DNA of 62,932 bases, counting the filler, from Welwitschia mirabilis (lineage: Eukaryota): the NCBI GenBank assembly GCA_051453625.1. It is 6 parts of one record of this genome, joined end to end, with 100 filler letters (N's around TTAATTAATTAA, not from the genome) between each part and the next. Parts side by side here need not be neighbours in the genome. Positions count along the whole stretch, not along the records: positions 40,360 to 47,591 come from JBOZIK010000001.1; 5 more parts are not named here. The stretch is one strand, 5' to 3'. The notes below the pieces were generated by a model, which saw only the letters and a program-made list of their open reading frames with translations, did not search any database and was not told where the DNA came from. Below, piece by piece: positions 10,947 through 60,939 of this stretch. A program made the position numbers and the translations under genes. Each line of letters begins with the position of its first letter. Position 1 is the stretch's first letter.

Positions 10947-12684
10947 ATGAGTAATCCATCTGACCATTTTTCGACCGGTCGTCCACCTATGTTTAACGAG
11001 TCAAACTATGCATACTAGAAAACTAGAATGAGAATTTGTTTTAGATCTCTAAAAGTTATCTATAAGAGTTATTCTATGGTTATGTTATGAAAAATGGATG
11101 CCAACGATAATACCACTTTAGTTTTCAACCAAGATCAATGAACTACCACTGACAAAACCAAAGCCACCATAGATGTTTATGCTCTTAATACAATATTTTG
11201 TGCAATTAATGCAGATGAGTTTAAACATATAGTGAATTATAATCATGCTAAAGAGGCTTGGGATATTCTTGAGGTAGCACATGAAGGAATGTCAACCGTA
11301 AAGCAAATAAAACTTCAAATTCTTATTTCTAAATTTGAAGACATCCATATGGATGAGGAAGAGACTTTATAGGAATTCTTTACAAGACTCACTTATATTA
11401 TAAACTCTATGGCAAGCCTTGGAAAATGATTAAATGAAAGAAAGATGGTTAGAAAGGTATTGAGATCTTTACCAAAGAGATTTAAACCAAAGGTCATAGC
11501 CATCGAAGATAGCAAGAACATATATGCAATGGCACTAAAAGAGCTACAAGGTAATCTACAAACCTATGAACTTAAATTTATTAAAGATCAAAAAAATATA
11601 TCATTTTGAAATGTGTGCAAGAAGAATATAGGCTAAAAGTTGAATGAGAATTTAAATAATGATGAAGTGGCTCTCCAAGCCAAAAGTTTCAAGAAGTTTC
11701 TACATAGGAAGAAAAAAGAAGGTGAGTTAAGTAGAAACTCAAAAAGAAGTCATCTAAAATACAGAAAGGAGTAAGAAAAAAGTAAAGAAATCCAATGCTA
11801 CTCATGCAAAGGATTTAGTCATATGGAAAATGAGTGCTCAGACGCAAAAAGAGACAACAGAAAAATAAGGAATCCCTCTTTTATTGCAACATGGAATAAT
11901 GAGGATGATGACTATGACAACCGTTTAGGTCTAGATAGAGATAAAAGATTATCCTTCATGGCAATTGTTCCTTCTCTCAAAAACTTACCTAGTGTATCAT
12001 AACCTGATAAATTGGACATAATGGATGAAGAAGAGAATAAATTAGAGGATAAAAGATAAATGATTTGAATAAAGTAGTAAAGTTTCTTACCAAAGAGAAG
12101 GAGGAAATAGGAATGAAGTATAATGTATTAAAATTTGACAACACCAATCTTTTGTCACAGGTAAAAGATCTATCTTTATTTGTTAATAAATCTTTTTAGT
12201 GGTTCTTTTAAGTTAGAATAGATGCTTGGAGTTCAAAAACCTACTAGAGACAAAATAGGTATTAGCTTCATTTTTCAAAATCTAGAAGAATAGGTAAACA
12301 GGAAATGTAAGTTTACTTCTAGAGTTTCCTATAATTTTTTTGATGAAATTGGACATTCAAAGTTATCTTGCAATATTAGAAATTTAATTTTTTTTTTAGA
12401 TTCATGAATTCTTTACCATTTAAATTTGTTCCTAAAAAAAGTGTATCACATAAGTCTAACAAGACTAAGTGGGTAATAGCTAATACTCTTAAAATTCCTT
12501 AAATGCAGATAGCTCTCAATGAATTAAGTGCAAATAGCTAATACTTAGATAGTGGATACTTAAGGCACATGATGGGAGAAAGATCAAATTTTCAACACTT
12601 AAGAAGTATTGATGGAGGAGATGTTACTTTTGAAAATAGTGAAAAGGCAAGAATAGAAGATGTAGGATGCATCAAAGAAGGTAA
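10947..12684 (+). pseudogene. SIRE gag and start of protease (element Y); continues at 23180-23360
   Basis: RPPMFNESNY, AKEAWDILEVAHEG, zinc knuckle CYSCKGFSHMENEC ~11796, YLDSGYLRHMMG ~12542. Confidence 0.85.
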
Positions 12685-13937
12685 TGATAGAATCGAGAAC
12701 CCTAGAGGAGGGGGGGTGAATAGGTTTTCTTAAAAACTTATGCTCAAAATAAAATTAAATCCATCTAAGCACAGTTTACATATGAAAATAATGGAATCAA
12801 GAATTGTTCATACAAAAATGGAAAACTGTAAGTAAAGAATCAAAAGACAAAAAAGCACAAACTACCAATTGTAATGCACACTAGATTTATAGTGGTTCAG
12901 GAACTCTCCTACTCCACTCTTGATGATTAGCTTCTCCCAATCTTGATCTCGGATCTCTGTTACTCCATAGGTTTTCTCAGGTTCACCTGTAACCCTTACA
13001 AGTGGACTTTTACAGGCTAAGTATCAACCTTAATAATGGTCTTTTGTAGCCTAAGTCTTAACCTTAACAATGGACTTTTGCAGGCTAAGTCTTAACCTTT
13101 GAAAATAATAGATGTGATGTAATGATGCCTTGATTGCTCAGATATCAAATGTTCTATAGTAGTACAATGAATGGAGCTCTTCTCCAATAGATCATAATGA
13201 TGGAGCTCTTAGATCTGATTTGAATGAAGCTCTTATGCCAATGATTAATCTCCTAAATTAGATTTGAAGCAATACAATGATACACTGATGAAAGTACAAC
13301 CCAGTATTTCAGATCCACAATGATTACATCAAATACAAATAGTGCCAAAAAGATCTCTAGGTCAACAATAGCATAGCTATTTATAATGGAGGGTTACTAG
13401 GGTTTATTTCAAATGAATTGCGCCTCCAACGGCTTTAAACAGCTAGAAAATAGCTAGGTAATGGCTAAGTAACAAATACATAACATTTACATATTTTACT
13501 TTTCCGTGCTATCCGATAGACCCCATAAAAATTTGGTCGACCCCATTCTGGGTTCGGTCGATCCCTTGCCTCTTGGTCTAGAACTATTTTCTATTAGCTT
13601 TTCAAGGCCGATTGATCCCATGAAAATCTAGTTGACTCCTTTCCTCTCGGTCTGGGATTATTTCCTATCAGTTCCTCAAGTCTGGTCAACTCCATGAAAA
13701 TCTGGTCGATCCCTCTGGATTTAGTTCATTCTTCTTGCGATAGCTTCAGGTGTGGTCGACCCTTTTAGGATCTGGTCGACTCCTATTGGAGGTTAACATA
13801 ACTTAGTAGATTTCTGGTGTATTCTTGGTCTAATTCTTTCACCTGCAAAAACTCAATCTTATCTACACACAAGATATAACATTTTTCACTACATAAGAGA
13901 TATTAGTTTGACATCAATTGGCAAATATAATTTAATA
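12685..13937 (-). repeat. 3' LTR of nested SIRE derivative
   Basis: Colinear with 21919-23174; adjacent to PPT CAAAGGGGGAGAT; TATAAATA box (rc) ~13378-13385. Confidence 0.9.
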
Positions 13938-21916: not shown

Positions 21917-21918
21917 AA

Positions 21919-23174
21919 TGATAGGATTAAGAACCCTAGAAGGGGGATGAATAGGTTCTCTTAAAAACTTATGCCCAAAATAAAATTAAATTTATCTAAG
22001 CACAGTTTACATATGAAAATAATGGAATCAAGAATTGTGCATACAAAAATGGAAAACTATAAGTAAAGAATCAAAAGGCAGAAAAACACAAACTACCAAT
22101 TATGATGCACGCTGGATTTATAGTGGTTTAGGAACTCCCCTACTTCACTCTTGATGATTAACTTCTTTAAATCTTGATTTTAAATCTCTGTAACTCTACA
22201 GATTTTCTCAAGTTCACCTATAACCCTTACAAGCAGACCTTTACAGGCTAAGTCTCAAACTTAATAGACTTTTAGAGGCTAAGTCTCAACCTTAACAACA
22301 GATTTTTGCAGGATAATTCTCAAAGTTTGAAAACAATATATGTGATGTAATGATGCCTTGATTGCTCAGATATCACACATTCTATAGCAGTACAATGAAT
22401 GGAGCTCTTCTCCAATAGATCACAATGATGAAACTTTTAGATCTGGTTTTGAATAAAGCTCTTGTACCAATGATTATTCTCCTAAATCAGATATGAAGCA
22501 ATACAATGATATATCAATGAAAGTACAACTTGATCTTTCAGATCCACAATAATTATGCTGAATGCAAGCAGTGCTAAAAAGATCTTTAGGTCAACAATAG
22601 CATAGCTATTTATAATGGAGGGCTACTAGGGTTTATTTCAAATAAATTCACCTCCAACAGCTATAAATGATTAGAAAATGACTAGGTAATGGATACATAA
22701 TGTTTAGATATTTTACTTTTTCACGTCATCTAGTCAACCCCACAAAAATCTGATTGACCCCATGAGAGCTCAGTCGACCCCATTCTGATTCCGGTCGACT
22801 CCTTGCCTCTCAGTCTGGAACTATTGTCTATTAGCTTCTTAGGTCCAGTCGACCCCATGAAAATCTGGTCGACTCTTTTCCTATCAGTCTGAGACTATTA
22901 CCTGTTAGTTCCTCAAGGCTGGTTGACCCCATGAAAATCTGGTTGACCCCTCTAGGTTTAGTCCATTTTTCTTGTGACATCTTTAGGTGCGGTCAACCCC
23001 TTTAGGATCTGGTCGACCCCTACTAGAGATTAACATAACTCAATAGATTTCTGGTGCTTTTTTAGTTCAATTCTTTCACCTGCAAAAACTCCATCTCATC
23101 TACACACAAGATATAACATTCTGCATTACACAAGAGACATTAATTTGACATCAATTGACAAATATAATCTAACT
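21919..23174 (-). repeat. 5' LTR of nested SIRE derivative
   Basis: Colinear with 12685-13937; PBS on the inner side, TSD on the outer side. Confidence 0.9.
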
Positions 23175-24942: not shown

Positions 24943-25042
24943 NNNNNNNNNNNNNNNNNNNNNNNNNNNNNNNNNNNNNNNNNNNNTTAATTAATTAANN
25001 NNNNNNNNNNNNNNNNNNNNNNNNNNNNNNNNNNNNNNNNNN
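24943..25042. other. Artificial contig spacer (N44-TTAATTAATTAA-N44); also 40260-40359, 47592-47691, 54934-55033, 60734-60833
   Basis: The same 100-bp construct, with stops in all six frames, occurs five times. Confidence 0.97.
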
Positions 25043-40259: not shown

Positions 40260-40359
40260 NNNNNNNNNNNNNNNNNNNNNNNNNNNNNNNNNNNNNNNNN
40301 NNNTTAATTAATTAANNNNNNNNNNNNNNNNNNNNNNNNNNNNNNNNNNNNNNNNNNNN

Positions 40360-41889
40360 CAAATCTTGGCAAGGATTTCTATGCAGGGAGAAAGGGTGTT
40401 GAGAGGAAGGGATGATGCATCAATGAGGGGAAACGACGCACGTTATAGAAGATGAATGCATGGAGAGTGGAAGAAATAAGCTTTGAAAGCTGTGGGTTTA
40501 AGGGAGATTAGAAGGAGCGCAAATCATCTCTCAACATTTGAGATGGAGCTGCATCCGATTGTTTTCATTCCTCTATGTTCAACAATTTTTATCATTCCTT
40601 AAGCTGTTCCTATGCCCATTTTCAATTTTGCAGGTTCTGTGATATATCGTCCATGATTCTTGTTTTTAGGACGGATGCCTCCACGGCCATTGAACATGGA
40701 AGCTTCTTCAAAGAAGGTAGTCTACAATGTCATGTTGGATTCAAAAGGAGTGGGAGATACTACATTGAAGATACAGAAATTGAGAAAAAATCTCTTAAAC
40801 TTGTAAAGTGGTTTGAAGAATTTGCCTGTGAAAGCTATGCTCAATCATTTTGCAATGGGACTGGGAAACATTGGCTTCATAATAAAGATTTTAGAACAGA
40901 GTTGGAAAAGCAACATCTGGAGTTACTTTTGAATATCAATGCCGCTGAGCTTGCTTTGATAGAAGAGAAGACAATGGAGCAAATTCACCGTGTATTTGAA
41001 AGGGAAATGCTGTTTAATGGATTAGAAAAATTTAAATGTCCAGATGTGTTGGCTGCAAGATATAAATCCTATGGATGCTGGCTAAGAGAGTGGATTCATG
41101 TCTATTACATAGGTTTTCTGATAGCTACTATAATTGTATTTGCACTTTCTAAATTTACTTTTGGTTGGTATCAGAAGAGAAGGTTTATCAAGAGAGCCGA
41201 GTAGTTGTATCAGTAGGTTTATGAGGTACTAGAGGAGAAGGCAACGATGAAAAGATTAAAGGGAGATAAAGGAGAACCTTGGGTGATATCTTTTTTGATA
41301 AGGGATTACCTTCTATTACCAACAGAAAGAGAGAACATGGCATTTTGGAAGCAGATAGAGTAATTCATATGGGAAGATACTCTCATTGATCAATATTCCA
41401 AATTGATAAGAGGTGAAACAAGGAATGTGCTCGAATGGCAAGTTGAAGAATCCTTTGCACCCAAGGAAGAGATTCAATAAGGCACATCATAGTATGCCAT
41501 CACTAAATAACAGAGATCAAGTGGAAGGGTTACAGTGTAAATCTAAAGTTGCCAACAGTGAATCATCATGAAACATCCCACATATTGATTTTGTAGGATA
41601 TGAATGGTATAAAAATTTATGAAAATAACTAATGCCCTATTTGAGGAGTGTAAAATTCCCATCATTACATGGTATTCTATATCAAATCCATTTGATCATA
41701 TATTTCTACTTGTAGGCAATTTTGTAAATTTATTGAATACTATTTATAAAGTTGAACAAATGAATAACGAAAGGCAAGTTTTATTTATGCTAAAACAACC
41801 AAAAAAAAATATAAATAAAGAAGAAAAGAAAGATGCATTGGCAAACCAATATATATATATTATAATAATAATAATAATATTTATATACA
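40360..41889 (-). repeat. 3' LTR of Tat element (truncated at contig end)
   Basis: Begins rc TGTATATAAA 1 bp after the PPT; colinear with 49723-51279; homology ends exactly at ...TTTATATACA in both copies. Confidence 0.85.
40692..41571 (+). pseudogene. MAN1: Processed, 5'-truncated copy of inner nuclear membrane protein MAN1 (Man1-Src1 C-terminal domain), copy 1
   Basis: EGSLQCHVGFKRSGRY.IED...CESYAQSFCNGTG..W...KCPDVLAARYK, hydrophobic TM segment, EPWVIS.LIRDYLLLPTER, LIRGETRNVLEWQVE; no introns; 3' UTR then A-rich tract ~41792-41832. Confidence 0.88.
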
Positions 41890-41890
41890 G

Positions 41891-41905
41891 TTTGTCCCCT
41901 TTTTT
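41891..41905 (-). promoter_or_regulatory. Polypurine tract of Tat element
   Basis: rc AAAAAAGGGGACAAA-C-TG. Confidence 0.8.
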
Positions 41906-43560
41906 ATGTGAAGCGAAAGAATTGGCTTTACATTAAAAATTTCACGAGATAAGTGATGGAACAAAATTAGGTATGACTTGAATAAGTGATAAAAATGCAA
42001 TTCGAAGAAAATCTAAACATGTGCATAGAATAGATAATGAGTACAAGATTGGTTAACAATGAAAGATTATGAGTGAGGCAATAAGGAAAATAACAGGAGA
42101 AATATGGATGCTTGACCAAATTAGAAACAAAGCAAACTGATTGTATGAGAGATGAGGGGTGGTGAAGTATAAGATAAATGAAGTAAAATTGATGATTAAG
42201 GAAGAGAATTCGACAAGGAAGTCTGGGTACTAATAGTGATGAATCGACTGAAGAGTGGAAACAGTTTTGAATAAATTTAGAGTAAATGTGAGAGATGACT
42301 CTGGGATAATCAACTGTAAATACTAGGAAAAAAGACTAGGTGGAAATGAACAAATAGAGACATGAAGAAGATTGGTTAAACATCTCTAAATGTTACTTTA
42401 GCAATGCCTACTAGTATAAATCATGCAATTATTCAATGTCGTTAACGACGATTCAATGCTAAATAACACAGAGCATCACGTGATTAGGATAGTAATTATG
42501 ACGATGTACATAGTTATTCTGTGGAGCATCGATGTAATGTCAGGACTATAAATCAATCTGATTGTTGGCTGTAACAGTAAATGAAATCTTGATAACTTAC
42601 CATTCAATGATCAATATATTCTGAACGTTCATGAACTCATCACTTCAGAGTCATGGAAAATCAGTCAATGGAATTTTTAGAAATCATCATCTACCATAAC
42701 GAGGGGAGTGCAACCACTGCCAAAGGCATAAGGATTCGCAAGCCGAAGTCAGATCATGACCAACTGATGCCCCGGTGGAGTTCCCATAGATACCATATCA
42801 CACTACCAAAGGCCCCTCTCAGGAATATTTGCCCCAGTGCGCTTGCAGTAGAACATCATGATTATTATTTTTTTCCTTTTTTTTGGTGAATGATATTGAT
42901 ATTTTACCAATTGACTTGAATTATTTTTTTTTTTGGAACATTAATTGATCATTGGAATGGTAAATCGTAAGATTCACTACTGAAAACAAGCATCAGTTTT
43001 AACACAAATCGATACTAGAACAGAAGAACATGAGGCATCGAATGTCATAGATGTGCGAATGTCTTAGGATTGGGTGAAATCCAATCTTATCACAGTAAAT
43101 ATCCCAAAGTAAGAAAACCACTTTTCTGAAACTTGAATGTGGTCTAACATAGGACCAAACGAAATTGACAATCAAATAAGGAAATGACTCTAACCAAGAA
43201 ACTCTGCTAAGGAGCCATTTAGGTAAAGATAACCCAATTGCTTCTACCATGCCAAGAGTATTATAATGATAATTAATGTAAACTCGGCCGTTGTCCATTA
43301 ACACTAAGCTTTTTCTTAGAATCTGAATTGAAAACTCAACGAAGTTATTCAAAATGCATTTCTTTGCAAGATAAGACTTTGACCATTTGACAATTAACTC
43401 ATTGTAAAGATGTACCCAAACATAATGCAACTAAATGATATAAATTAAGTAATAAAAATTTTATTGACAAGTTCAAAAAGGACTGGATACAAAATAGAAA
43501 CTGAAAACTACATGACAAATTATTGAAAGAAAGAGGATGAGTAGGTGAAACATGCTATCT

Positions 43561-43839
43561 TCAGGTGGAAGGATGGATATGTTGCATAACAAGGTAGCAT
43601 AAAATGATTTGTACAAAAGCACAAGTTATAGAAAAGGACAAATAGGTAGTGTCGTAGTGAGGGTCAACATGGTATATAACATCATCATCTTCATCGTTTT
43701 CGATGGGAGGAGCCTCATAAAATGGAATTTCAATCAAGGAATCTTGGTAAGGAATGGGATAATGTCTGCCAGGTGCAGGAGGTTCAGGAGGATCGTCAAC
43801 ATTTAGCCATGCCAGAAGTTGAAGTTTATGATGACTCAT
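43561..43839 (-). CDS. Small (92 aa) extra ORF downstream of Tat pol; Pro/acidic N-half, hydrophobic C-terminal segment; unknown function
   Basis: Open here; homologous copy at 44647-44924 has one TGA; preceded by pyrimidine tract and CAG. Confidence 0.35.
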   Translation of the reverse strand: MSHHKLQLLAWLNVDDPPEPPAPGRHYPIPYQDSLIEIPFYEAPPIENDEDDDVIYHVDPHYDTTYLSFSITCAFVQIILCYLVMQHIHPST

Positions 43840-45638
43840 GATCTGTAAAACTCAGAGAAAGAAAAATAAACATGAAATCTATATGACACTTAAGAAAATA
43901 TTATCCTAAGTAACCAGTATCTATATAAGTGAATTGCATTTTAGCATGACTAAGATGGTAACAATAAATGCATGAAATAAATAGTTCAAATACCACAGAA
44001 AGATGTAAATTATGAAATTTATTGATAATATGGTCAGAGGTAAAATGAGTTTATTGGTTCTTTGTCTTCAATGCCATTCAGACTTTTGAGCTTGTATGTT
44101 CCTTTATTGAATTTTTGTGATATAACAAATGGTCCTAACAGGTTTGGTTAAAATTTTGAGGTTTTCTAAGTTAAGTTTACCTTTAAGATGAGTTCTTCTA
44201 CATTATATGATCATGGATTGATATAATTATTATATGCTTCACTCACTCATTTTTGGTAGAGTTGCGTATGTTGCAATGATTTTATTCTTTCCTCGTCTAG
44301 AGTTCTAATTGAGCGAGTCGTGCTTCTCTTTCAATGTTGGACAATTCAAGATCTTTAACCAAGGTTCTTAGTCTGGGAATTTGGATTTGAGTTGGCAAAA
44401 TCACCTCGGTACCATAAATTAACTAGAATGGAGTTGTTCCCATAGCACTTTTTACTGACATACAGTAAGCCCATAATGCAAGGGGTAATTTTTCATGTCA
44501 TGATTTGTGATTTTTCTATAATAATTTCTTGAGATAGTTTATGATTNNNNNNNNNNNNNNNNNNNNNNNNNNNNNNNNNNNNNNNNNNNNNNNNNNNNNN
44601 NNNNNNNNNNNNNNNNNNNNNNNNNNNNNNNNNNNNNNNNNNNNNNCAGGTGGAGGGATGGATATGTTGCATAAGAAGGTAGCATAAGATGATTTGTGCA
44701 AAAGCATGAGCTATAGAAAAGGACGAATAGGTGGTGTTATAGCGAGGGTCAACATGATATATAACATCATCATCTTCGTCATCTTCGATAGGAGAAGCCT
44801 CGTGAAGTGGAATGTTAATCAAGGAAGTTTCGTAGGGAATGAAATAACATTTGCCAGGTGTGGGTGGTTTAAGAGGATCATCAACACTTAGTCATGCCAG
44901 ACATTGAAGTATATGGTGACTCATGATCTGTAAAACTCAAACAAAGAGATAAAACGTGAAATCTATATGACACATAAGAAAATGCTATTCTAAGTAACCA
45001 ATAGCTATATAAATGCATCACATTTTCGCATGACTAAGATGGTAACAATAAATGCATGAAACAAACAGTTACCATAGAAAATGCCACAGAAAGATATGGA
45101 TTGTGAAATTTACTGATAATATGGTTGAAGGTAAAATGAGTTTATTGGTTCTTTGTCTTTAAGGTCATCCAGACTTTTGAGTTTGTATGTTTTTTTATCG
45201 AATTTTTGTGATATAACAAATGGTTCTAACTAGTTTGGTGAAAATTTTGAGGTGTTCTTAGTTAAGTTTGCCTTTAAGATGAGTCCGCCTACATTGTATG
45301 ATCATGGATTGATATGCTTATTATATGCTTCACTCACTTATTTTTGATAGAGTTGTGTATGTTGCAGTGCTTTTATTCTTTCCTCATCTAGAGTTTCTAA
45401 CTGAGCGAGTCATGTTTCTCTTTCAATGTTAGATAATTCAAGGTCTTTGACCAAGGTTCTTAGTGTAGGAATTTGGATTTGAGTCGGCAAAATTGCCTTA
45501 GTACCATAAACTAACTAGAATGGAGTTCTTCTTGTAGCACTTTTTACCGAGGTACAGTAAGCTCATAATGCAAGAGGTAATTTTTTATGCCATGATTTGG
45601 GATTTTTCTGTAACAATTTCTTGAGATAATTTATGATC
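43562..45638. repeat. ~1 kb diverged direct duplication (43562-44526 and 44647-45638) of integrase C-terminus plus extra ORF, across an N gap
   Basis: Colinear sequence with scattered substitutions and small indels. Confidence 0.9.
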
Positions 45639-47591
45639 ACTTTATTTGTTGCCTCGGCTTAACCATTCACTTGTGGATAACGCGGGGTCGAGAAGGAATG
45701 TTTTATTCCCAATTTAGTCAAGAAGTTCTTTAACTCGACAGATTTGAATTATGGGTCATTATTGCTAACTATGATATAAGGAGTACCGAATCTAGTGATG
45801 ATGTAATCCATGATAAATTTTTGGATTTGTTTTGTAGTTGTTTGATGCAAAGATACTGCTTCTACTGACTTCGAAAAATATTCTGAGAATATAAGCATGT
45901 CGTTCAGACAAGGTCGGTGTAGTTGGACCAATTAGATCCATACCCCATTTTCTACACATCCAAATAGGATTAGATGGAAAAAGTTCAGTAGGCAGTTGAT
46001 GTATTCTAGATGAAAAGATTTGGCAAGTGTAATATGTTTTTACCATCCTAAAACAATCGTGACTCATGGTTTTCCAGAAGTAACTTGATNNNNNNNNNNN
46101 NNNNNNNNNNNNNNNNNNNNNNNNNNNNNNNNNNNNNNNNNNNNNNNNNNNNNNNNNNNNNNNNNNNNNNNNNNNNNNNNNNNNNNNNNNNNNNNNNNNN
46201 NNNNNNNNNNNNNNNNNNNNNNNNNNNNNNNNNNNNNNNNNNNNNNNNNNNNNNNNNNNNNNNNNNNNNNNNNNNNNNNNNNNNNNNNNNNNNNNNNNNN
46301 NNNNNNNNNNNNNNNNNNNNNNNNNNNNNNNNNNNNNNNNNNNNNNNNNNNNNNNNNNNNNNNNNNNNNNNNNNNNNNNNNNNNNNNNNNNNNNNNNNNN
46401 NNNNNNNNNNNNNNNNNNNNNNNNNNNNNNNNNNNNNNNNNNNNNNNNNNNNNNNNNNNNNNNNNNNNNNNNNNNNNNNNNNNNNNNNNNNNNNNNNNNN
46501 NNNNNNNNNNNNNNNNNNNNNNNNNNNNNNNNNNNNNNNNNNNNNNNNNNNNNNNNNNNNNNNNNNNNNNNNNNNNNNNNNNNNNNNNNNNNNNNNNNNN
46601 NNNNNNNNNNNNNNNNNNNNNNNNNNNNNNNNNNNNNNNNNNNNNNNNNNNNNNNNNNNNNNNNNNNNNNNNNNNNNNNNNNNNNNNNNNNNNNNNNNNN
46701 NNNNNNNNNNNNNNNNNNNNNNNNNNNNNNNNNNNNNNNNNNNNNNNNNNNNNNNNNNNNNNNNNNNNNNNNNNNNNNNNNNNNNNNNNNNNNNNNNNNN
46801 NNNNNNNNNNNNNNNNNNNNNNNNNNNNNNNNNNNNNNNNNNNNNNNNNNNNNNNNNNNNNNNNNNNNNNNNNNNNNNNNNNNNNNNNNNNNNNNNNNNN
46901 NNNNNNNNNNNNNNNNNNNNNNNNNNNNNNNNNNNNNNNNNNNNNNNNNNNNNNNNNNNNNNNNNNNNNNNNNNNNNNNNNNNNNNNNNNNNNNNNNNNN
47001 NNNNNNNNNNNAAATTCCAAGTTGAACTCAGCGAGAATCAATGCCCACTTTGTTAGACGAGTACTTCCAATAGAATATTTAAGTAAACGTTTGAGCAAGT
47101 TCTGGTTATTGATTACAATGGTCTTATTTGTTATCATGTAGTGTCGAAATTTCTGTGAAGTGAAGACTAAGCTCAGACATGCTTTCTCTACTTCGATGTA
47201 ATTTTTCTCATATTGATGAAGTATTCTACTAATATAGTAAATGGGGTGATCTCGGTGTAACTCGTCTCGTTGAAAAATCATTGCACTAAGTGATGATGGT
47301 GTGTATGCAAGGTAAAGATAAAAGGGTTGACCAGGTTTTAGTGGACTTAAGACAGGGGTGGATGTCAAGTATTCTTTAATCTTATCAAAAGCCTTTTGGC
47401 AATTTTTGTACCACTTAAATTGGTTGTCCTTCTTGAGCAAATGCATGAAAGGTTTACATCTATCTGTCAAAGTTGAAATGAATTGACGTATGGCTTGCAG
47501 CCTACCTTGGAGGCTACATAATTGTTTCAAGTTGTGGGGTGATGGCATGTCTGTTATTGCTTTGATTTTTTTTGGATCAATCTCGATTCCT
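45115..47591 (-). pseudogene. Tat-type pol: RT C-terminus, RNase H, integrase (gap inside)
   Basis: LKQLCSLQGRLQAIRQFISTLTDRCKPFMHLLKK...AFDKIKEYLTSTPVL, PIYYISRIL, RLTKWALILAEFNL; WGMDLIGP, ITRFGTPYIIVSNN, PRYPQVNG. Confidence 0.92.
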
Positions 47592-47691
47592 NNNNNNNNN
47601 NNNNNNNNNNNNNNNNNNNNNNNNNNNNNNNNNNNTTAATTAATTAANNNNNNNNNNNNNNNNNNNNNNNNNNNNNNNNNNNNNNNNNNNN

Positions 47692-47963
47692 CATTCATTT
47701 ACGAATTCTTGGTTTTCATCGTATTCTTGTGAGAAGGGGTCTTCAGGGAGAATCTTATTCTCATCACCTAAAATTATTAGTTTCTTAATTGTCAAAGAAC
47801 GAATTCTCTGGGTAGGATGGATGAGATAACCCTCCCAATAACTTCTATAGTCGTTCATGACACGAAGTTTGTCAGGAGTGAGAGTCGAAGGGTGTTTTTG
47901 GACAAGTATCTTGTACTCATCTTCAAAGATGCACACTTGTTTCCCGCAGGTGGACATCGACAT
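47692..47963 (-). pseudogene. Start of first ORF (putative gag) of Tat element
   Basis: Open frame MSMSTCGKQVC... ~100 bp downstream of the PBS, running into the spacer; identity inferred from position only. Confidence 0.45.
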
Positions 47964-48063
47964 TATGGCTGTTATGTGTAACAAGATGGTAGGCGAGTTT
48001 AAATGAAAACAAGTGCGATTTGAATAAAACAATAATGAAACAATAAAGGCCTACATGAGGGCG

Positions 48064-48080
48064 CCCTCCTTCTAGCACCA
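48064..48080 (-). promoter_or_regulatory. Primer-binding site, likely tRNA-Asn
   Basis: Plus strand CCCTCCTTCTAGCACCA, one mismatch to the recalled plant tRNA-Asn 3' end CCCTCCTTCTAGCGCCA; 4 bp from the LTR end. Confidence 0.75.
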
Positions 48081-48084
48081 AATT

Positions 48085-51000
48085 TGTTACGACAAATTTC
48101 TTCGCAATGATTAAATTATTTTTTTTCGATTTATAAAGGAAAAATCTTTAAAATTTCTATACAATGGTTGCACATAAAATGGAGTCATAACCATAGTTAA
48201 TCCAAGAAACTATAGAATAATAAAACACAAAAAAAAAAAAAAAACATAGAAAGATGTAGAAAATTAAGAAAATCAATTTGAAATTCAGTCTCACTAAGAT
48301 TCTAAAAAATTATTTGAATATTTGACTTAAAAATACCATACACCTAATTTTAAAAGTTTAAACTCAAATATTATATATAGAAATAAATTTCATAACGGAA
48401 AACATTATGGATTCAACCATTACCCTAAAATTTATAATTACAAAGAAGATGAGAAGTATGTAAAAATTGGAGATTGTAGAATATGGATTTATAGGTGATC
48501 ANNNNNNNNNNNNNNNNNNNNNNNNNNNNNNNNNNNNNNNNNNNNNNNNNNNNNNNNNNNNNNNNNNNNNNNNNNNNNNNNNNNNNNNNNNNNNNNNNNN
48601 NCTAAAATTTATAATTACAAAGAAGATGAGAAGTATGTAAAAATTGGAGATTGTAGAATATGGATTTATAGGTGATCATAGATAAAATATTTTCTTCGGA
48701 TTCTTTAGAGAAATGTCAAATCTAAACGTGAACGAGAGGTTTTAAGATAGAATATGTTTGAAATTCAACCTTATTAGAATTGTAATGGTCATGTATAATA
48801 GTGCAAGAGTGTTAATCAAATTAAAAAAAAATAAGTGCAAGATTTACATAATAAGGAAACTTGAAATTAAATATTCCATGTCGTTTCTAGTAGGCTGGCA
48901 CTGGCTAACGTCTCTGATCAGTTTCCTTGCCATTGCTCAGTTTTGGGGCTCCGATGTGTTGTCGTTCGCCTCTTGTCACTACTATTTTTGGCCTCTTTTT
49001 CTACTATTTACATCCTTTTGTATGCTCCGTTGTTTACTGTCCTCCATGATCTAGTGTCGCTTGCTTCTATTATTTTGGTCTCTCTCTGATCCTTCCTGTG
49101 ATGCCTTGTGTGTCCTTCTCCGGTGTTCCTATGTATATTTCGCTGCATTCCTGGGCCGTTCTTAGTGTTTCTGTCAATCTGTTCCACTGCCGTGATGTGC
49201 TGTTATGTGAATGCCCCTCTGTGTTGCTGTATCGTTTTTTTTCTTTGTTTCTTTTTTCTCTTTGATTTGGTGTTTCTACCATTTCTCTCCATCTCAGTGT
49301 GTTTTGATCCTTGCTTCCTGTGATGAATGCGTCTCGATGCCTCCTGGCGTTACTGAATGTTCTCCCCTCTACCTGATGCCACTCTAGCATTTTTGCTGTT
49401 CTAGTCTTGGTGTTCTCTAATGCATCGTCCCTGCAATGTTTGCGTCTCTCCGATCTTATATTCATGTCATTCTAATGCCATTGTTCTAAGTGCCTCTCTA
49501 TCCCCTGCGTTCTCTTATTTCCAGTCTCTTCACGTTTTTTTTGTTTTTAATTCTGCTGTTCGCTCTATCTTATGCGGGCGTCCCTATTCCATGCCCATTT
49601 TTGGTGTTTCTGGATTCCTCCTTTTGATGATTCTCCTTTTTTTTTTTTTGTCCACCTGCATTCGTTACACTTTTAATGCCTACGATCTTGTTTTCTTGGA
49701 GATTGGCTCCCCTTCTTCTACCCAAATCTTGGCAAGGATTTCTATGCAGGGAGAAAGGGTGTTGAGAGGAAGGGATGATGCATCAATGAGGGGAAACGAT
49801 GCGCATTGTAGGAAGATGAACGCGTGGAGAGTGGAAGAAATGAGCTTTGAAAGCTGTGGGTTTCAGGGAGATTAGAAGGAGTGCAAATCATCTCTTAACA
49901 TTTGAGATGGAGCTGCATTAGATTGTTTTCATTCCTTTGTGTTCAATAATTTTTATCATTCCTTAAGCTGTTCCTGTGTCCATTTTCAATTTTGCAGGCT
50001 TCGTGATATATCGCCCGTGATTCGTATTTTTAGGACGGATGCCTCCACAGTCGTTGAACATGGAAGCTTCTTTAAAGAAGGCAGTCTACAATGTCATGTT
50101 GGATTCAAAAGGAGTGGGAGATACTGCACTGAAGATACAGAAATGGAGAAAAAATTTCTTAAACTTGCAAAGTGGTTTGAAGAATTTACCTGTGGAAGCT
50201 ATGCTCAGTCATTTTGCAATGGGGCTGGGAAACATTGGTTTCATGATAAAGATTTTAGAACAGAGTTGGAAAAGCAACATCTGGAGTTACTTTTAAATAT
50301 CAATGCCGCTGAGCTTGCTTTGGTAGAAGAGAAGGCAATGGAGTAAATTCACCATGTATTTGAAAGAGAAATGCTATTTAATGGATTAGAAAAATTTAAA
50401 TGTCCAGATGTGTTGGCTGCAAGATATAAATCCTGTGGATGCTGGCTGAGAGAGTGGATTCGTGTCTATTACATAGGTTTTCTAATAGCTACTATAATAG
50501 TATTTGCACTTTCTAAATTTACTTTTGATTGGTATCATAAGAGAAGGTTTATCAAGAGAGCTGAGCAGTTGTATCAGCAGGTTTATGAGGTACTGGAGGA
50601 GAAGGCACAAATGGAAAGATTAAAGGGAGATAAAGGAGAACCTTGGGTGATATCTTCTTTGATAAGGGATTACCTTCTATTACCAACAGAAAGAGAGAAC
50701 ATGACATTTTGGAATCAGATAGAGCAATTCATACAGGAAGATACTCACATTGATCAATATCCCAAATTGATAAGAGGTGAAACAAGGAATGTGCTCGAAT
50801 GGTAAGTTGAAGAATCCTTGCACCCAAGGAAGAGATTCAATAAGGCACATCATAGTATGCCATCACTAAATAACAGAGATCAAGTGGAAGGGTTAGCATA
50901 AATCGAAAGTTGCCAATAGTGGATCATCATGAAACATCCCACATATTGATTTTGTAGGATATAAATGGTGTAAAAATTTATGAAAATAACTAATGCCCTA

Positions 51001-51221
51001 TTTGAGGAGTGTAAAATTCCCATCATTACATGGCATTCTATATCAAATCCATTTGATCATATATTTCTAGTTGTAGGCAATTTTGTAAATTTATTGAATA
51101 CTATTTGTGAAGTTAAACAAATGCATAATTAAAGGTAAGTTTTATTTATGCTAAACCAAAAAAATAAATAAATAAATAAATAAAGAAGAAAAGAAGAAAA
51201 GAAAGATGCATTGGCAAACCA

Positions 51222-51260
<39 letters not shown>

Positions 51261-51279
51261 TTTATAATATTTATATACA
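48085..51279 (-). repeat. 5' LTR of Tat element (~3.0-3.2 kb)
   Basis: rc TGTATATA...GTCGTAACA; PBS on the inner side; 49723-51279 matches the 3' LTR. Confidence 0.82.
50056..50932 (+). pseudogene. MAN1: Processed MAN1 copy 2
   Basis: ORFs 49939-50346 and 50371-50805 are in the same frame, separated by one TAA; RAEQLYQQVYEVLEEKA...EPWVISSLIRDYLLLP...IQEDTHIDQYPKLIRGE. Confidence 0.88.
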
Positions 51280-51899
51280 CTAACTAAACTAAATAAATAA
51301 AATATTTATTAGCTAGATATTAGTGATGCAAATCCATGTAGAAAAAGGAAAAAAATCAATGTACAAAAAGTGTTTATAATGAACCTTAGGATTGTCATGA
51401 AGGAGTACTAGCCTATAAGAGATATTAAGGATAAGACTGCTCCCTTTCTATATATAAATCCAAATATATATGGGTATCCAAAGTTTTATAGTGAATCCCT
51501 TTATCAATTATCCATAATCATCTATTAGTAACCTCAATTACTAAGCATAAAAAACCCTTAATTTCTTCCTACTGTCTTGGTGAGAGCTAAGGGGAGGAAT
51601 AATTTTTATAATATAATGTCATAATAAAAATAAACAATAGACTAATGCAATATTTTAATACTCTGGTAGAATCTTAAGAGTGATCATCATATGGATAATT
51701 TAAATAAACTAGATTACTTGGATATATTAGTTATTCCTTAGTAGATAAAGATTGATGAAGTTCTAAGCTCAAGAATCCCTAGATCTAAGCTTCTAAGTTC
51801 TTACCACTTAGTTTTTAAGTTCTAAGATTTAAAGACCCAATATTCCAAGTTTCAAGCTCTATAAGCATGAGAATGAAAAGGAAGAGAGATGAAAGAAAG

Positions 51900-54800
51900 A
51901 AATGCAATTACATGAAAAAGGAAAAGTATGCCCCCATTTGTTTTTTTAAGAGAGGAGAGTATCTTTATTTATATATAAATAATAGATTAAAGGCATGTAA
52001 TCCAAGATCATAAGATTACATGATTTATCATTAATAAGTAGGATAAGTAATAAATGACATTAGAGTATGAAAAAAAACACTATATTTATACTTCATTTGC
52101 CTAGCTAAGCCGAGTAATTTTTTTCCTTTCATTACTAAAGTTAATTACATGCATCATTTTCTCATGATAGCTCCTTCTTAATTCCTCATAGGCTTTAGGC
52201 ACATTTAATTAATTCAAGACATGTATTAAAATAATATATGCAAAAATTATAAAGCTTTCATGCAACATAATGAGATAAGCCTCTTTAATTATAATAAAAA
52301 AATAATTAATATGTTATAAATCAAGTGCTATTATATATCTTAAGAAGATAAAGATTATAGTGGAGTAAATATAATCATTTATCATTTTTGGTTCTAGGTA
52401 AGAGTGCATGCACTTATTCACATACTCATTTATTTTATAATACATAAAATCTATCAATCATGTAACACAAAAGAAGATGTCTATTCATAATTAGGCATAG
52501 TATATCTATAACATTTACTAATAAATTTAAATAAGTAAATAAAATATCATGTTATGGTATAAATTTATGTAATCCTTAAGTCCTTTAAACATACATGTAA
52601 ATCAAAATACTTGTAGAAAAACACACACTAGTATAGATGCAAGTTAACCCAAATGTTGTAGTCCATTGAAAGCACTAGGCTAAAAGTTAGAGAATTCATT
52701 TCTAAGGGTATGTTGGTGTTTTATCTTTTAATAAATGAAAGTAAATAAATATCAAAATATAATGCAATGATGAATGAAGATGAAATGCAATGGATGAAAT
52801 GTAAATGAGATGAGTTCTATTTTGTCTTATTTCTCTTATCACAAGGACTAGCTCTCTATAATTCAAATTAATTAAGAAGATTTTATCACTTGTTTCTAAT
52901 CAAATAGAATATGGAATAAGGATGTGAAATGGAAATGAAATAGCAATGGAAATATAAACTAAGATAATCACCCTTAACAACGGTTACTTTTATGACCTAA
53001 ATAAATTATAAAATTATCACTAAACTATAATCATCTTAAACGATAAGGGACATAAACAAAATTGTAGTGAAAAGAGTAATTGAATTAATTATAAAACTTT
53101 TACATCCACTTACAACAAAGTAGTAGCATCTTAATGGAGGATACTCAACCCAACACTAAGGTAAAATTCTCTTTGTGGCTACCAGATGAACCTCTTGTTC
53201 TTTAGTCTTCCATCATAAGAACATCAAGTATAAAAGATAAAAATGGAAGTGAAGGAAAGGAAGGGTATTTATAGTTTTACATTCAAGTTTTAAAATCTCA
53301 ACCCTAGAAGTCAGAGAAGAAATCATAGTAGCCCAAATGGGTCCTATAACCTCATTACAAAGATAATTCTTTCCATCATAGAAAATATTTATCATCTTAA
53401 CTATCGTGGAGATAACAATGGGGATGTCACTCCATATCAAAAGGTGGTCCATTAGCTTTAGGCCCCGCAGTTAACTCTGTAACCTCTATCCATATCAACA
53501 GTGCTATCATCTTGCCTATAATGGGGATAACAGNNNNNNNNNNTAGCAAATCCTTCTTTTAAAGTGTGGAGTATTAGAATAAGCCTGAAAAGCCTCCAAA
53601 TATGCTAAGAATTACATTTTTTGGTGATCATCCTATCAGTCCTTCATAATTAGTAGAATTGCATCCAAACCTATATAAATTTCCTATAAAATAATTCAAA
53701 ATACATCATCAAATTTATAAAAATTAACATCACAACATAGCCTCCTACTTAGCATTTTTAGTCTCTAACAAAGTAAGTAATTAATTATATTGCGAGCCAA
53801 TTTGACTAAGATAAATAGAAACTATAAAAATATAATTCAAGTTTAATTTTACCATGTAGGCATAAGTATCAAAAAAAGTTTAACTAACGCAAATACTGAC
53901 ACTTTCCTAAGCCCTCCACTTAAACATATCACCATAGAATGAATGAATGTCATACACATAAAAAAATCATAAAATATAACAACGGTAGCTTAGAAAATGA
54001 TAATGTATATGAATGATGCAAGATAGTGATATTAGACTAATGTGAAAAACTTAAGTAGTACTAGTCTCAAAAGAATGATGCATCTAAATTCATTACTATA
54101 ATCAACAAGGGACAAGGTACAAGAGTAAATATAGTATTCTTTTCTTTTTAGATGATCCAAAAACATAGCTATAAGAAACCTTTATGAGTGTGATACCCTG
54201 CTCCTATAAGATAAAGTCCCTAAATTTTATTCAAATAATAGAAAATCATATCCAAATAACTAATCATAGATATGTATCGTGAAAGCTCAAAGAAATGCAG
54301 TTACATGAAAAAGGAGGAGTATGCCCCCATTTGTTTTTTTAAGAGGAGAGGATCTTTATTTATAGATAAATAATAGATTAAAGGCATGTAGTCCAAGATC
54401 ATAGGATTACATGATTTCTCATTAATAAGTAGGATAAGTAATAAATGACATTAGAGTATGAAAACAAACACTATATTTATACTTCCTTTATCTAGCTAAG
54501 ATCAGTAATTTTTTTCTTTCATTACTAAAGTTAATTACATGCATCATTTTATCATTCTAGCTCCTTCTTAATTCCTCATAGGCTTTAGGCACATTTAATT
54601 AATTCAAGACATGTATTAAAAGAATATATGAATAAATTTTAAAGTTCTCATATGACATAATGAGATAAGCCTCTTTAATTATAATAAAAAATAATTAATA
54701 TGTTATAAATCAAGTGCTATTATATATCTTCAAAAGATAAAGATAATAGTGGAGTAAATATACTCATTTATCATTTTTGGTTCTAGGTAAAAGTGCATGC

Positions 54801-54933
54801 ACTTATTCACATACTCATTTATTTTATAATACAGAGAATCTATCAATCATGTAATACAAAAAAGGAGATGTCTATTCATAATTAGGCATAATATATCTAT
54901 AAAATTTACTAATAAATTTAAATAAGTAAATAA
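51900..54933. repeat. ~640-bp direct repeat (51900-52540 and 54292-54933), probably Athila-like 3' internal sequence
   Basis: Colinear from AATGCA(A/G)TTACATGAAAAAGG to AATAAGTAAAT. Confidence 0.85.
52550..53737 (-). repeat. Athila-like LTR with PPT at 53738-53753
   Basis: rc GCTAAGTAGGAGGCTA-TGTTG resembles the 8493-8514 junction; shares CCACTTACAA...CTTAATGGAGGATACT with ~61461-61500. Left boundary uncertain. Confidence 0.55.
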
Positions 54934-56313
54934 NNNNNNNNNNNNNNNNNNNNNNNNNNNNNNNNNNNNNNNNNNNNTTAATTAATTAANNNNNNNNNNN
55001 NNNNNNNNNNNNNNNNNNNNNNNNNNNNNNNNNAGAGAGACAGAGAGAGAGAGAGAGATAGAGAGAGAATCAAGTTAAAAATAGATGAATTTGACAAAAT
55101 TTATAAGAATAATTTGCATGCGTGAATTATATAACTAGAGAATGAAGAGTTTACTTTGCAGTAGAGATGATGGATAATAATTGAACATTTACTATGGGAT
55201 AATACTAATGAAATTTAGATCACTATTATGTTTTTTAAGAAAACATGTCATAGTCCATACTTATTATAACTAGATTACAAAAGAAACTATATTTCAACAT
55301 TAGCAATCTATCCATAATATATAGATGCTACTAAATAGTAATCCTAAATAAAATATGAAATAGATCATGGTAATCATCTATGATTAGATTGAAAGGAATA
55401 AATGAAAGATAAAAAAGATAATTAGAATATATGTGAGGTATTTAACATACAATGATATGTTTATGATTGAGGGCAAATATTATGTACAAGTTCTTCTAAT
55501 CAATATCCATGTAATTCCTATTGTTCATGATGTTGAATTGATCATTTAATAATACTATAAGTAGATTAAGGAGTTCATATTCTATCAAGCACTAGAAATA
55601 GCTACAACTACTCATAGTAGACATATTTTCTAAATAAAATATTTCATTCCTTGCATGTAGATTATGAATGCCTAATTAATACAAAGTTATTCTTCTACAA
55701 AGTGATAACATTGCAAGAAGTTCTTCTTTTGATTCTTGTAGGTAGTTTAATAATTATGAATATTAATTAATGTAGTTATTCTAATATATACTCTAAAATA
55801 AAAATCTTACTACTTATCTTAACTAACCTAATTAATATGAAGTATCACAAAGTTTTAAATATCTCATGAAATGACTATGTTAATTTTTATAACATATTAA
55901 TTGTATAATTCTTTATTTTATTTTTATTTTTATTTATCTTTTTTGGTTTTAATATATGTGTTCATGTGCACATGTGTGCATGTGGAGGAGTAAGGAATGA
56001 TGTGGGTATTAAATAATACTTCTGTACAATGTTTATTGTAAGTAATATAAAAACATTTTAAGTCCTTATAAAGTTTAAGGAAGAAAAGTCTTAAGTCATA
56101 TGAAAACCTTGGTTGATTTTGCAAGTCTACTTATAAAAAAGCATTATAAAACTCAAGATAAAAAGTCTTTCAACAAAACATTAGGGGGAGGGGATGGGAA
56201 GAAGAGAAAGAGANNNNNNNNNNNNNNNNNNNNNNNNNNNNNNNNNNNNNNNNNNNNNNNNNNNNNNNNNNNNNNNNNNNNNNNNNNNNNNNNNNNNNNN
56301 NNNNNNNNNNNNN

Positions 56314-60733: not shown

Positions 60734-60939
60734 NNNNNNNNNNNNNNNNNNNNNNNNNNNNNNNNNNNNNNNNNNNNTTAATTAATTAANNNNNNNNNNN
60801 NNNNNNNNNNNNNNNNNNNNNNNNNNNNNNNNNCATAAAATAGCAAATTATGGGGCTAGTAGCAATTACATACTACAATTGAACACAATCGGAATAGTCA
60901 ACAAAAACATATGAGCCCACATACAAAATAGCTAATGTT

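Follow-up and report, generated by a model that had tools for sequence, protein, structure and literature searches.

It is well established that LTR retrotransposons of plants capture gene fragments, and the majority of these are neutral pseudogenes. In the maize retroelement Bs1 the host fragments are located in the internal region. According to a review, the LTR retroelement Bs1 has transduced pieces of three host genes, and its hybrid frame is transcribed and translated (PMC13317346). In maize B73, a genome-wide survey of gene fragments captured by LTR retrotransposons lists 425 elements and at least 189 captures (PMC2774510); captures have also been described in rice and sorghum, with many of the rice cases given as pseudogenes under neutral evolution (PMC3726574). 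In BARE-2 and Veju, foreign sequence is stated to have entered the LTR by aberrant template switching (PMC13317346).

We analysed a window of 62,932 nucleotides from Welwitschia mirabilis, i.e. the whole stretch to which all positions below refer. It contains what is likely to be a Ty3/gypsy-type element with an antisense MAN1/MSC retrocopy in its LTR, captured before the last transposition and left to neutral decay afterwards. As far as the cited accounts describe Bs1, the two are alike in being LTR retroelements with reverse-transcribed host coding fragments that make a hybrid open frame; unlike in Bs1, the present insert is antisense and within the LTR, both of its copies are interrupted, and two RNA runs showed no transcripts from it. 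It resembles BARE-2 and Veju, by the same accounts, in that the foreign sequence lies within the LTR itself and is copied to both ends at transposition, but their donor was another retroelement or an unknown sequence whereas the donor here was a spliced, polyadenylated host mRNA. The capture sets of maize B73, rice and sorghum, as reported, represent the same phenomenon.

Two long repeats around retrotransposon domains

Two long direct repeats (40360-41889 and 49723-51279; 93-94% identical) surround an internal region. In the repeat comparison, 40360-41879 matched 49723-51251 with 93% identity over 1535 columns, and the aligned copies differed at 95 of 1504 aligned bases (K2P distance 0.067). 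The following features were assigned:

40360-41889, minus strand: probable 3' LTR (copy 1), the 93% repeat; the minus strand opens with TGTATATAAATATT at 41889, and the left part is lost to the gap 40260-40359
48934-51279, minus strand: probable 5' LTR (copy 2), opening with TGTATATAAATATT at 51279; 49723-51279 aligns with copy 1, and the left edge is putative
41890-41907, minus strand: polypurine-tract-like run (minus strand ATAAAAAAGGGGACAAAC, then the TG of the LTR), directly upstream of the 3' LTR in element sense
47012-47590, minus strand: RNase H-like part of reverse transcriptase (Pfam RT_RNaseH_2, 2.2e-24; RT_RNaseH, 3.9e-21)
45670-45880, minus strand: integrase core remnant (Pfam rve, E=2.3e-7; 31.4 bits, just below the 32.6 cutoff, with stops read as X)

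Both copies have the TG end on the minus strand (41889 and 51279); the CA end of copy 1 falls inside the gap. The left edge of the copy-2 LTR would lie near 48934, where CA followed by a TGG... stretch (48934-48921) suggests an LTR end and a primer-binding site, and DNA depth drops close by, near 48913. On the minus strand, RT-RNase H (47590 to 47012) is followed by integrase (about 45880 to 45670), which is the Ty3/gypsy-type order. Pfam found no family in the minus-strand ORFs at 41970-42335, 43002-43430, 43564-43851, 47694-48050 and 49073-49471 or in the plus-strand ORF at 49405-49872, and gag and protease, looked for at 47692-48501, were not found there. A single contig of DNA run X1 (depth 2.6) carried a joint from 49652 to 51487, which could represent an insert-free relative of this LTR.

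The captured MAN1/MSC retrocopy

Each LTR carries, about 57 bp from its tip and antisense to the element, sequence derived from a MAN1/MSC-domain gene. The position would correspond to U3. The parts of the insert are:

40575-40577, plus strand: ATG that opens the ORF of the earlier note on this DNA; GTG at 49939 in copy 2
49998-50072, plus strand: second transcribed host piece, with loose RNA ends ahead of 49983 and 50007 and past 50072; copy 1 equivalent 40634-40708
40710-41571, plus strand: MAN1/MSC-derived coding fragment of copy 1 (parental codons ~132 to stop), with three stops and one extra T
50074-50932, plus strand: MAN1/MSC-derived coding fragment of copy 2 (parental codons ~132 to stop), with two stops and a 2-bp loss after 50894
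50933-51157, plus strand: parental 3' UTR in copy 2, where RNA reads with parental letters reach about 51100-51200; copy 1 equivalent 41572-41800
51158-51205, plus strand: A-rich tract, read as the degenerate remains of a poly(A) tail; copy 1 equivalent 41801-41832

The closest protein to the insert came from the Welwitschia mirabilis transcriptome: copy 2 was 82% identical over 287 aligned columns to one of its proteins, P0003. The insert was colinear, without introns, with a 417-aa isoform (P0154) across 273 codons. Both copies run continuously over a splice joint used in RNA (50493 to 50538, three reads), which corresponds to the 13-aa difference between P0003 and P0154; parental splicing is known here from RNA reads and transcriptome proteins. 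The A-rich tracts start directly where coverage by parental RNA reads ends, in both copies, and the LTR continues for ~57-74 bp beyond them to its tip. The insert, intron-free and with an A-rich tail, is a processed retrocopy of a MAN1/MSC-domain mRNA. A search by eye for a target-site duplication around it gave only a resemblance of 6-7 nt (TGCATT), which is not above chance.

The Pfam MSC family (PF09402, cutoff 29.7 bits) scored above its cutoff in copy 2 (37.0 bits) and below it in copy 1 (25.3 bits), with stops read as X. The copies retain a membrane segment and the C-terminal MSC part, which they share with plant MAN1/Src1-like MSC proteins (PF09402; P0003, P0154 and homologues from Camellia and Psidium). 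Unlike those proteins, the LTR copies are interrupted, lack codons 14-131 and have conserved residues replaced. The missing parental codons cover the first membrane segment and some of the Cys-rich motif. Neither copy encodes a complete protein with both membrane segments, as residues 14-131 are gone and the remainder is broken by three stops and one frameshift in copy 1 and by two stops and one frameshift in copy 2. The 209-aa ORF of copy 1 found no match among predicted proteins of 114-366 aa.

The earlier note had described a 39-aa leader of non-MAN1 sequence at the start of the frame, and this description had to be revised. Homology to the parental mRNA begins at 50074 in copy 2 and 40710 in copy 1, which is codon 46, and RNA reads lying from 50074 onward carry, just before it, the parental codons for CLPCPENGIC. 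Nor is the leader plain non-MAN1 sequence: it holds a second transcribed exon with MEASS codons at its end, which the ORF reads out of that exon's own frame. An acceptor-like ...TTTTGCAG precedes this piece (49998-50072), whose last letters, ATG GAA GCT TCT T (MEASS), are in frame +1 relative to the ORF. Another transcribed sequence matches positions 49983/50007-50072 and diverges past 50072. MEASS corresponds to residues 9-13 of the parental-type protein (the N-terminus of P0154). The piece may or may not be the coding exon with which this MAN1-like gene begins; the one link is this five-residue match ending at the junction (chance ~0.04 by our own rough estimate), and the RNA continuation past 50072 does not encode P0154 sequence. 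The leader was also considered as a frame-scrambled continuation of the parental Cys-rich exon, and this was rejected: parental RNA reads part from the copy exactly at 50074. Aligned in three frames with residues 1-135 of P0003 and P0004, the leader scored at chance level only (21-31).

Private lesions and decay of the two copies

The lesions listed in the earlier note were largely seen again. In the frame from 40575, copy 1 has TAG at 41202, TAG at 41214, TAA at 41361, with one T too many in the run at ~41453-41455; in the frame from 49939, copy 2 has TAA at 50344 and 50803. As had been claimed, the lesions are private and do not overlap, and all stops are of the CAR>TAR type: the other copy reads CAG or CAA in the alignment at every stop, so all five are C>T differences. 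The loss in copy 2, previously given as 4 bp, is one of 2 bp after 50894 (two gap columns, where parental RNA reads insert two letters); the shift in repeat offset from 9364 to 9361 was noted at this deletion. At 50344, DNA contigs, which are not assignable to loci, had C in 4.2 of 14.3 depth units (X1) and in 11.4 of 28.4 (X5).

The ORF itself agreed with its earlier description, 997 nt minus the extra T giving 332 codons including the stop TGA at 41569-41571, and the start codon indeed differs, ATG at 40575 (copy 1) against GTG at 49939 (copy 2). Both copies have an in-frame TGA 12 codons before the ORF start. The ATG of copy 1 probably arose by a G>A change after insertion, as 22 of the 25 polarised private replacements were G:C>A:T and none went in the opposite direction. 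ATG codons 1 and 27 of the frame are both probably derived, and the first ATG common to the two copies is codon 134. The claim that the progenitor LTR had an uninterrupted frame holds by parsimony: each stop or frameshift is private, and the parent has a sense codon or no indel at that place. This was judged site by site against the parental protein and mRNA and not from a built consensus.

Transitions accounted for 73 of the 95 differences between the LTRs. With G/C taken as ancestral, they fell at 15 of 28 CG, 16 of 67 CHG and 42 of 442 CHH sites. The comparison of copy 2 with RNA reads at 102 places pointed the same way (A>G 35 and T>C 25 vs G>A 8 and C>T 10). In the decay of the copies, G:C>A:T transitions at CG and CHG sites predominate. 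Window GC is 18-38%; the Welwitschia genome is reported to have ~29% GC owing to long-term deamination of methylated TEs (PMC8275611).

Expression, selection and origin of the insert

RNA came from two runs (X18 and X21), each read to about a quarter, from libraries that look unstranded. Reads at least 99% alike to the copies numbered 1 of 523 in X18 and 0 of 205 in X21, and essentially all reads carried the letters of the parental gene, which was well expressed in both runs. Among the 40 listed places at which copy 2 and the reads differ (587 further), 36 had RNA coverage, and at 35 the parental letter was found in all or all but one of the reads per strand column; place 50735 was mixed in X21 (7 of 15 and 5 of 7) and parental in X18 (37 of 37 and 30 of 30). 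RNA depth in the two runs was almost nil over 48602-49953, which gives no support to plus-strand transcription upstream of the ORF, about which the earlier note had asked for 48900-49940. No transcripts from the captured copy were seen.

These data bear on the idea that the insert acts as RNA. It lies antisense in LTR sequence that the element RNA includes at its 3' end, so a full-length transcript could carry, via U3 of the 3' LTR, ~1.1 kb antisense to the parental MAN1-like mRNA and could supply small RNAs that silence the parent, a role that has been proposed for certain captured fragments. We regard this as very improbable here, as no reads with the copies' letters were found on either strand, the parent is well expressed in both runs, and the copies are heavily mutated and 6-9% diverged from the parent. 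A different doubt concerns the element itself. Because of five scaffold gaps (40260-40359, 44547-44646, 46090-47011, 47592-47691 and 48502-48601), the assignment of both repeats to one element is no more than likely; these gaps, and a gag/protease region that is absent or unrecognisable, would speak for a segmental duplication or separate elements joined by scaffolding. Against this stand the same TG... terminus on both repeats, the purine tract on the inner side of the left copy, where a minus-strand element should have it, RT-RH-INT between the repeats in matching orientation, and similar loads of derived transitions in the two copies (39 and 34). We consider an origin as separate repeats improbable; that the repeats are the LTRs of one minus-strand Ty3/gypsy-type retrotransposon is likely, as part of the overall explanation.

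The earlier note had further proposed that the frame might have been kept by selection as an LTR-borne antisense gene, i.e. that the progenitor LTR bore a functional gene for a truncated MSC-domain protein, held open until silencing. The MSC domain is still recognisable, and not one stop or frameshift is common to both copies, yet 8 to 14 amino-acid changes preceded insertion; at the post-insertion lesion rate, the probability of this under neutrality is ~0.05-0.16, mildly low and not decisive. The dN/dS-type check, done as sampled non-synonymous to synonymous counts, gave 10:6 for shared changes against 30:10 for codons differing between the copies, the neutral control, nominally lower but not significant (Fisher p=0.51); the shared count includes changes on the parental gene's own lineage, and parental nucleotide states are known for 32 coding positions only. 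Both copies carry the same, pre-insertion replacement at 14 of the 260 codons that could be compared, and these changes show no avoidance of conserved sites: mean conservation was 0.41 for these, 0.38 for post-insertion replacements and 0.36 for unchanged sites (Mann-Whitney p=0.82). Among them, C>Y affects a residue that is the same in 13 of 13 homologues, while L>F, G>E and K>E affect three that are conserved in 11-12 of 13. Also against a selected gene are the probably derived ATG codons 1 and 27, with codon 134 the first common ATG, the native MEASS start out of frame, the loss of codons 14-131 with the first membrane segment, the lack of copy-derived reads and of RNA upstream of the ORF, and the lack of a similar predicted protein for the 209-aa ORF. 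Selection on such a gene thus seems very improbable. A broader version, in which the active element bore an intact U3 antisense frame of at least 198 codons from the shared ATG (codon 134), with the membrane segment and the MSC winged-helix part, and in which this cargo mattered, whether by encoding a truncated nuclear-envelope protein or by regulating the parental gene in antisense, would account for the absence of lesions between capture and last transposition; we give it a small chance. Too little time for decay combined with neutral evolution is favoured over selection, and the open frame is likely to be a leftover of the parental reading frame and not a maintained gene.

The sequence of events that we propose for the neutrally decaying retrocopy is as follows. 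Before its last transposition, the element would have gained a reverse-transcribed host MAN1/MSC-domain mRNA, antisense, in U3 of its LTR. The copied mRNA would have been spliced and polyadenylated yet aberrant or partial, its 5' piece with the terminal MEASS codons fused straight to parental codon ~132; this fusion would put the native start out of frame, and the first membrane segment would be lost together with part of the Cys-rich motif. Transposition would have placed the insert in both LTRs, which then may have decayed independently, mainly by deamination of methylated cytosines giving the CAR>TAR stops and also by small indels. Capture may have occurred when the element's reverse transcriptase switched template onto a poly(A) mRNA during plus-strand DNA synthesis, which would fit the antisense position near the LTR tip, or by LINE-type insertion of the retrocopy into the LTR of an active element.

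The insert is most likely an ordinary captured gene fragment of a known capture type, evolving neutrally, and not a new gene. Private, non-overlapping lesions are expected in the two LTRs of an element and alone are no evidence of a maintained frame. What this locus contributes is a clearly resolved anatomy, with a copy of a spliced, polyadenylated and aberrantly joined mRNA lying antisense near the LTR tip. It is also a clean example of C>T decay driven by methylation, from a gymnosperm genome with very low GC content, and one in which the two LTRs serve as internal neutral controls for one another.

The host element and its surroundings

Self-comparison of the AT-rich window (GC 18-38% in 2-kb windows) gave a direct repeat, 40360-41879 (copy 1) against 49723-51251 (copy 2), with 93% identity over 1535 columns. 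Both repeats open with the same TGTATATAAATATT on the minus strand, at 41889 and 51279, and a purine run, ATAAAAAAGGGGACAAAC, immediately upstream of the left copy matches the polypurine tract expected before a 3' LTR. The domains found between the repeats follow the Ty3/gypsy order. The left part of copy 1 is missing because this copy begins right behind the gap at 40260-40359. For copy 2 we infer a far LTR end near 48934, where a CA stands before a TGG... stretch and the DNA depth shifts, which would make the LTR ~2.3 kb long. It is highly probable that the repeats are the two LTRs of a single element, though five gaps intervene. The draft scaffold contains further N runs of 10, 100, 498 and 922 bases, and with so many joints the order and spacing of the pieces around the element depend on scaffolding.

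Element domains and scaffold joints
47012-47590, minus strand: RNase H-like reverse-transcriptase part, between the repeats (PF17919, 2.2e-24; PF17917, 3.9e-21)
~45670-45880, minus strand, downstream of the RNase H part: remnant of an integrase core (rve; E=2.3e-7, 31.4 bits against a cutoff of 32.6)
24943-25042, 40260-40359, 47592-47691, 54934-55033, 60734-60833: scaffold joints, 44 N, TTAATTAATTAA and 44 N

The two copies showed 95 differences and 24 gap columns, with 1504 aligned bases (K2P 0.067). At 2.2e-9 substitutions per site per year, the rate used for Welwitschia in PMC8275611, insertion would date to roughly 15 million years ago, an upper-range figure because methylated repeats probably mutate faster than this rate assumes.

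Several other repeats were observed. The element's 3' internal region holds a tandem duplication of ~1.09 kb (43562-44545 / 44647-45637, 86% identity, 100-N gap between), whose minus-strand ORFs carry an acidic DEDDDVIYHVDP motif and gave no Pfam match. Right outside the 5' LTR, 51306-51700 is a very high-copy repeat, with summed contig depths of 357-2239 in DNA run X1 and 619-6993 in DNA run X5 against only 3-35 for the LTR; its numerous internal skips point to a family of short, variable-length elements. A single X1 contig (depth 2.6) joins 49652 to 51487 with 3 letters between and leaves out the entire insert together with the tip of the LTR; this may be a relative without the insert, or repeats joined by chance. 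Two contig pieces of X5, a run labelled as another organism, cover 49007-49330 and 49322-49635 with 0 differences to the window, so that either a very close relative shares the locus or the run comes from such a relative. Another, older LTR-like direct pair, 12683-13935 / 21917-23172 (83% identity, 1267 columns, spacing ~9.23 kb), showed no similarity to the MAN1-bearing LTR in the window self-comparison. A direct repeat of ~650 bp (51896-52542 / 54289-54933, 93% identity) has its second copy stopping at a scaffold joint.

Origin of the insert

Both frames match the Man1-Src1p C-terminal domain (Pfam MSC, PF09402; copy 2 37 bits, copy 1 25.3, cutoff 29.7). The closest protein was P0003 (404 aa), which like its 417-aa isoform P0154 is a parental-type protein known from the transcriptome of Welwitschia mirabilis. 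Copy 2 and P0003 share 82% identity across 287 columns, and other plant homologues are more distant (35-50%). We aligned two RNA runs labelled as the same species (X18 and X21, each read to ~1/4; the libraries look unstranded) to 48602-51700, where depth was limited to ~49983-51150. The reads pass the stop codon and enter the 3' UTR, behind which both copies have an A-rich tract (41801-41832; 51158-51205) and then the final ~57-74 bp of the LTR. Three X18 reads skip 50494-50537, which matches the 13 residues by which P0003 and P0154 differ; the parental MAN1-like gene has a minor isoform without 13 residues of the membrane segment. The LTR copies are continuous across this joint, which together with the UTR and the A-rich tract identifies the insert as a processed, polyadenylated retrocopy on the plus strand, antisense to the element. 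Missing from it are parental residues 14-131, a stretch that holds the conserved Cys motif as well as the first membrane segment.

The earlier note had described a 39-aa non-MAN1 leader, a length that did not hold. Reads from 50074 onward carry, just before this position, codons for CLPCPENGIC (parental residues 122-131), and parental homology therefore starts at codon 46 of the reading frame. The leader piece itself (49983/50007-50072) is also covered by RNA at a similar depth; 67 (X18) and 58 (X21) leader reads leave the copy sequence after 50072 and continue into different sequence, and two alternative upstream continuations were seen. An acceptor-like ...TTTTGCAG stands before the piece in the LTR copies, and its end, ATG GAA GCT TCT T, encodes MEASS, residues 9-13 of P0154, in frame +1 relative to the proposed ORF. 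Protein alignment of the leader in three frames gave chance-level scores only. This piece is probably the first coding exon of a MAN1-like gene, either the same one or a paralogue, captured as an exon-skipped or otherwise aberrant transcript, with the MEASS match as the sole sequence link. Whichever exon reading holds, it is host-derived sequence in a foreign frame.

Capture may have occurred when reverse transcriptase switched from minus-strand DNA to a poly(A) mRNA at an early stage of plus-strand synthesis, which would yield an antisense copy with its poly(A) toward the LTR tip; the retrocopy is antisense and its poly(A) end faces the tip. The alternative is a LINE-type insertion of the retrocopy into the LTR of an active element. 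We found no convincing duplication flanking the insert that would set LINE-type insertion apart from the template switch.

Lesions and the progenitor frame

Stops and frameshifts had been claimed not to overlap between the copies, and this was borne out.

Lesions in the two copies
41202 (TAG), 41214 (TAG), 41361 (TAA), plus strand: stops in copy 1, frame from 40575
~41453-41455, plus strand: frameshift in copy 1, one extra T by alignment to copy 2
50344 (TAA), 50803 (TAA), plus strand: stops in copy 2, frame from 49939
after 50894, plus strand: frameshift in copy 2, 2 bp lost by alignment to copy 1

The other copy is intact at each place, reading CAG or CAA opposite all five stops. The parental-type protein has Q at 4 of the 5 places; the fifth, 50344, is an Arg codon in all parental RNA reads (X18: 31/31 and 35/35). 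These reads have two letters inserted after 50894 and no indel at the T run, so that the loss in copy 2 is 2 bp and not the 4 bp proposed near 50895.

Transitions made up 73 of the 95 LTR differences and, with G/C taken as ancestral, affected 54% of CG sites, 24% of CHG and 9.5% of CHH; the CAG>TAG stops fall on CHG sites. Among 102 places where copy 2 differed from parental RNA, 60 had A/T in the copy for G/C in the RNA and 18 the reverse. This A/T excess agrees with the deamination of methylated repeats reported for Welwitschia in PMC8275611.

When private replacements were polarised by the parent, 22 of 25 were G:C>A:T transitions and none were the reverse (sampled synonymous differences add two G>A and one A>G), suggesting that wherever the copies differ as A/G the progenitor very likely had G. 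Both ATG 40575 and the ATG at codon 27 are such differences, with copy 2 reading GTG; a Met at codon 69 occurs in copy 2 alone. The earliest ATG that the parent and both copies share is codon 134, and both 40575 and 49939 are preceded by an in-frame TGA at a distance of 12 codons. The ~331-codon ORF proposed from ATG 40575 thus stands as an open progenitor frame, but probably not as an ATG-initiated one.

Constraint and expression

A comparison of the copies with the parent at codon level covered 273 codons, beginning at KEGS and ending at the 2-bp loss; 260 of them have a P0003 residue. All three sequences were identical at 218 of the 260; 14 had a replacement common to both copies, 16 were private to copy 1 (3 stops included), 9 to copy 2 (1 stop included), and at 3 all three differed, among them the copy-2 stop at 50344. 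Differences between the copies, 30 non-synonymous and 10 synonymous codons, served as an internal neutral control. Shared changes, a class that includes changes from the constrained parental lineage as well, were 10 non-synonymous to 6 synonymous (listed RNA places: 31 positions, 25 codons comparable in register), no different from the control (Fisher p=0.51).

Nor were conserved sites avoided. Across 13 plant homologues, mean identity to the parent was 0.41 at shared-replacement sites, 0.38 at private and 0.36 at unchanged sites, with no conservation bias of shared-replacement sites against the others (Mann-Whitney p=0.82). Among the shared replacements, C>Y affects a residue that is invariant across 13/13 homologues, L>F and G>E fall on sites with conservation in 12/13, and K>E on one with conservation in 11/13. 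The outgroup protein P0004 has the parental residue at 8 of the 14 shared sites, the residue of the copies at 2 and a different one at 4. The LTR lineage had therefore gained no fewer than 8 replacements ahead of the last transposition, at conserved places, which looks like the pattern of relaxed constraint. The absence of any shared lesion is the sole observation against relaxed constraint: at post-insertion rates (5 stops per 30 replacements; 2 indels per 43 differences), 8-13 pre-insertion replacements predict 1.8-3.0 lesions, and the chance of zero is 0.16 to 0.05.

Reads at least 99% alike to copy 2 numbered 1/523 (X18) and 0/205 (X21). At places where the two copies jointly depart from the parental sequence, at most one read lacked the parental letter (e.g. 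50320, 50467, 50585, 50707); among listed RNA-covered places, mixed letters occurred only at 50735 and only in X21 (7/15 and 5/7). The earlier note had proposed looking for a plus-strand TSS in 48900-49940; in the fractions read of X18 and X21 there was next to no RNA over 48602-49953, the required site of a plus-strand promoter.

The open progenitor frame claimed earlier is sound; its maintenance by selection is not supported. Such a frame is close to the prediction of LTR biology anyway. Gene-fragment capture by LTR retrotransposons is well known (Bs1, BARE-2 and Veju are described in the review PMC13317346), with 425 fragment-bearing elements and at least 189 captures reported for maize B73 (PMC2774510), and many captured genes of rice and sorghum are reported as neutral pseudogenes (PMC3726574). 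The MAN1 insert of Welwitschia belongs to this already known phenomenon.
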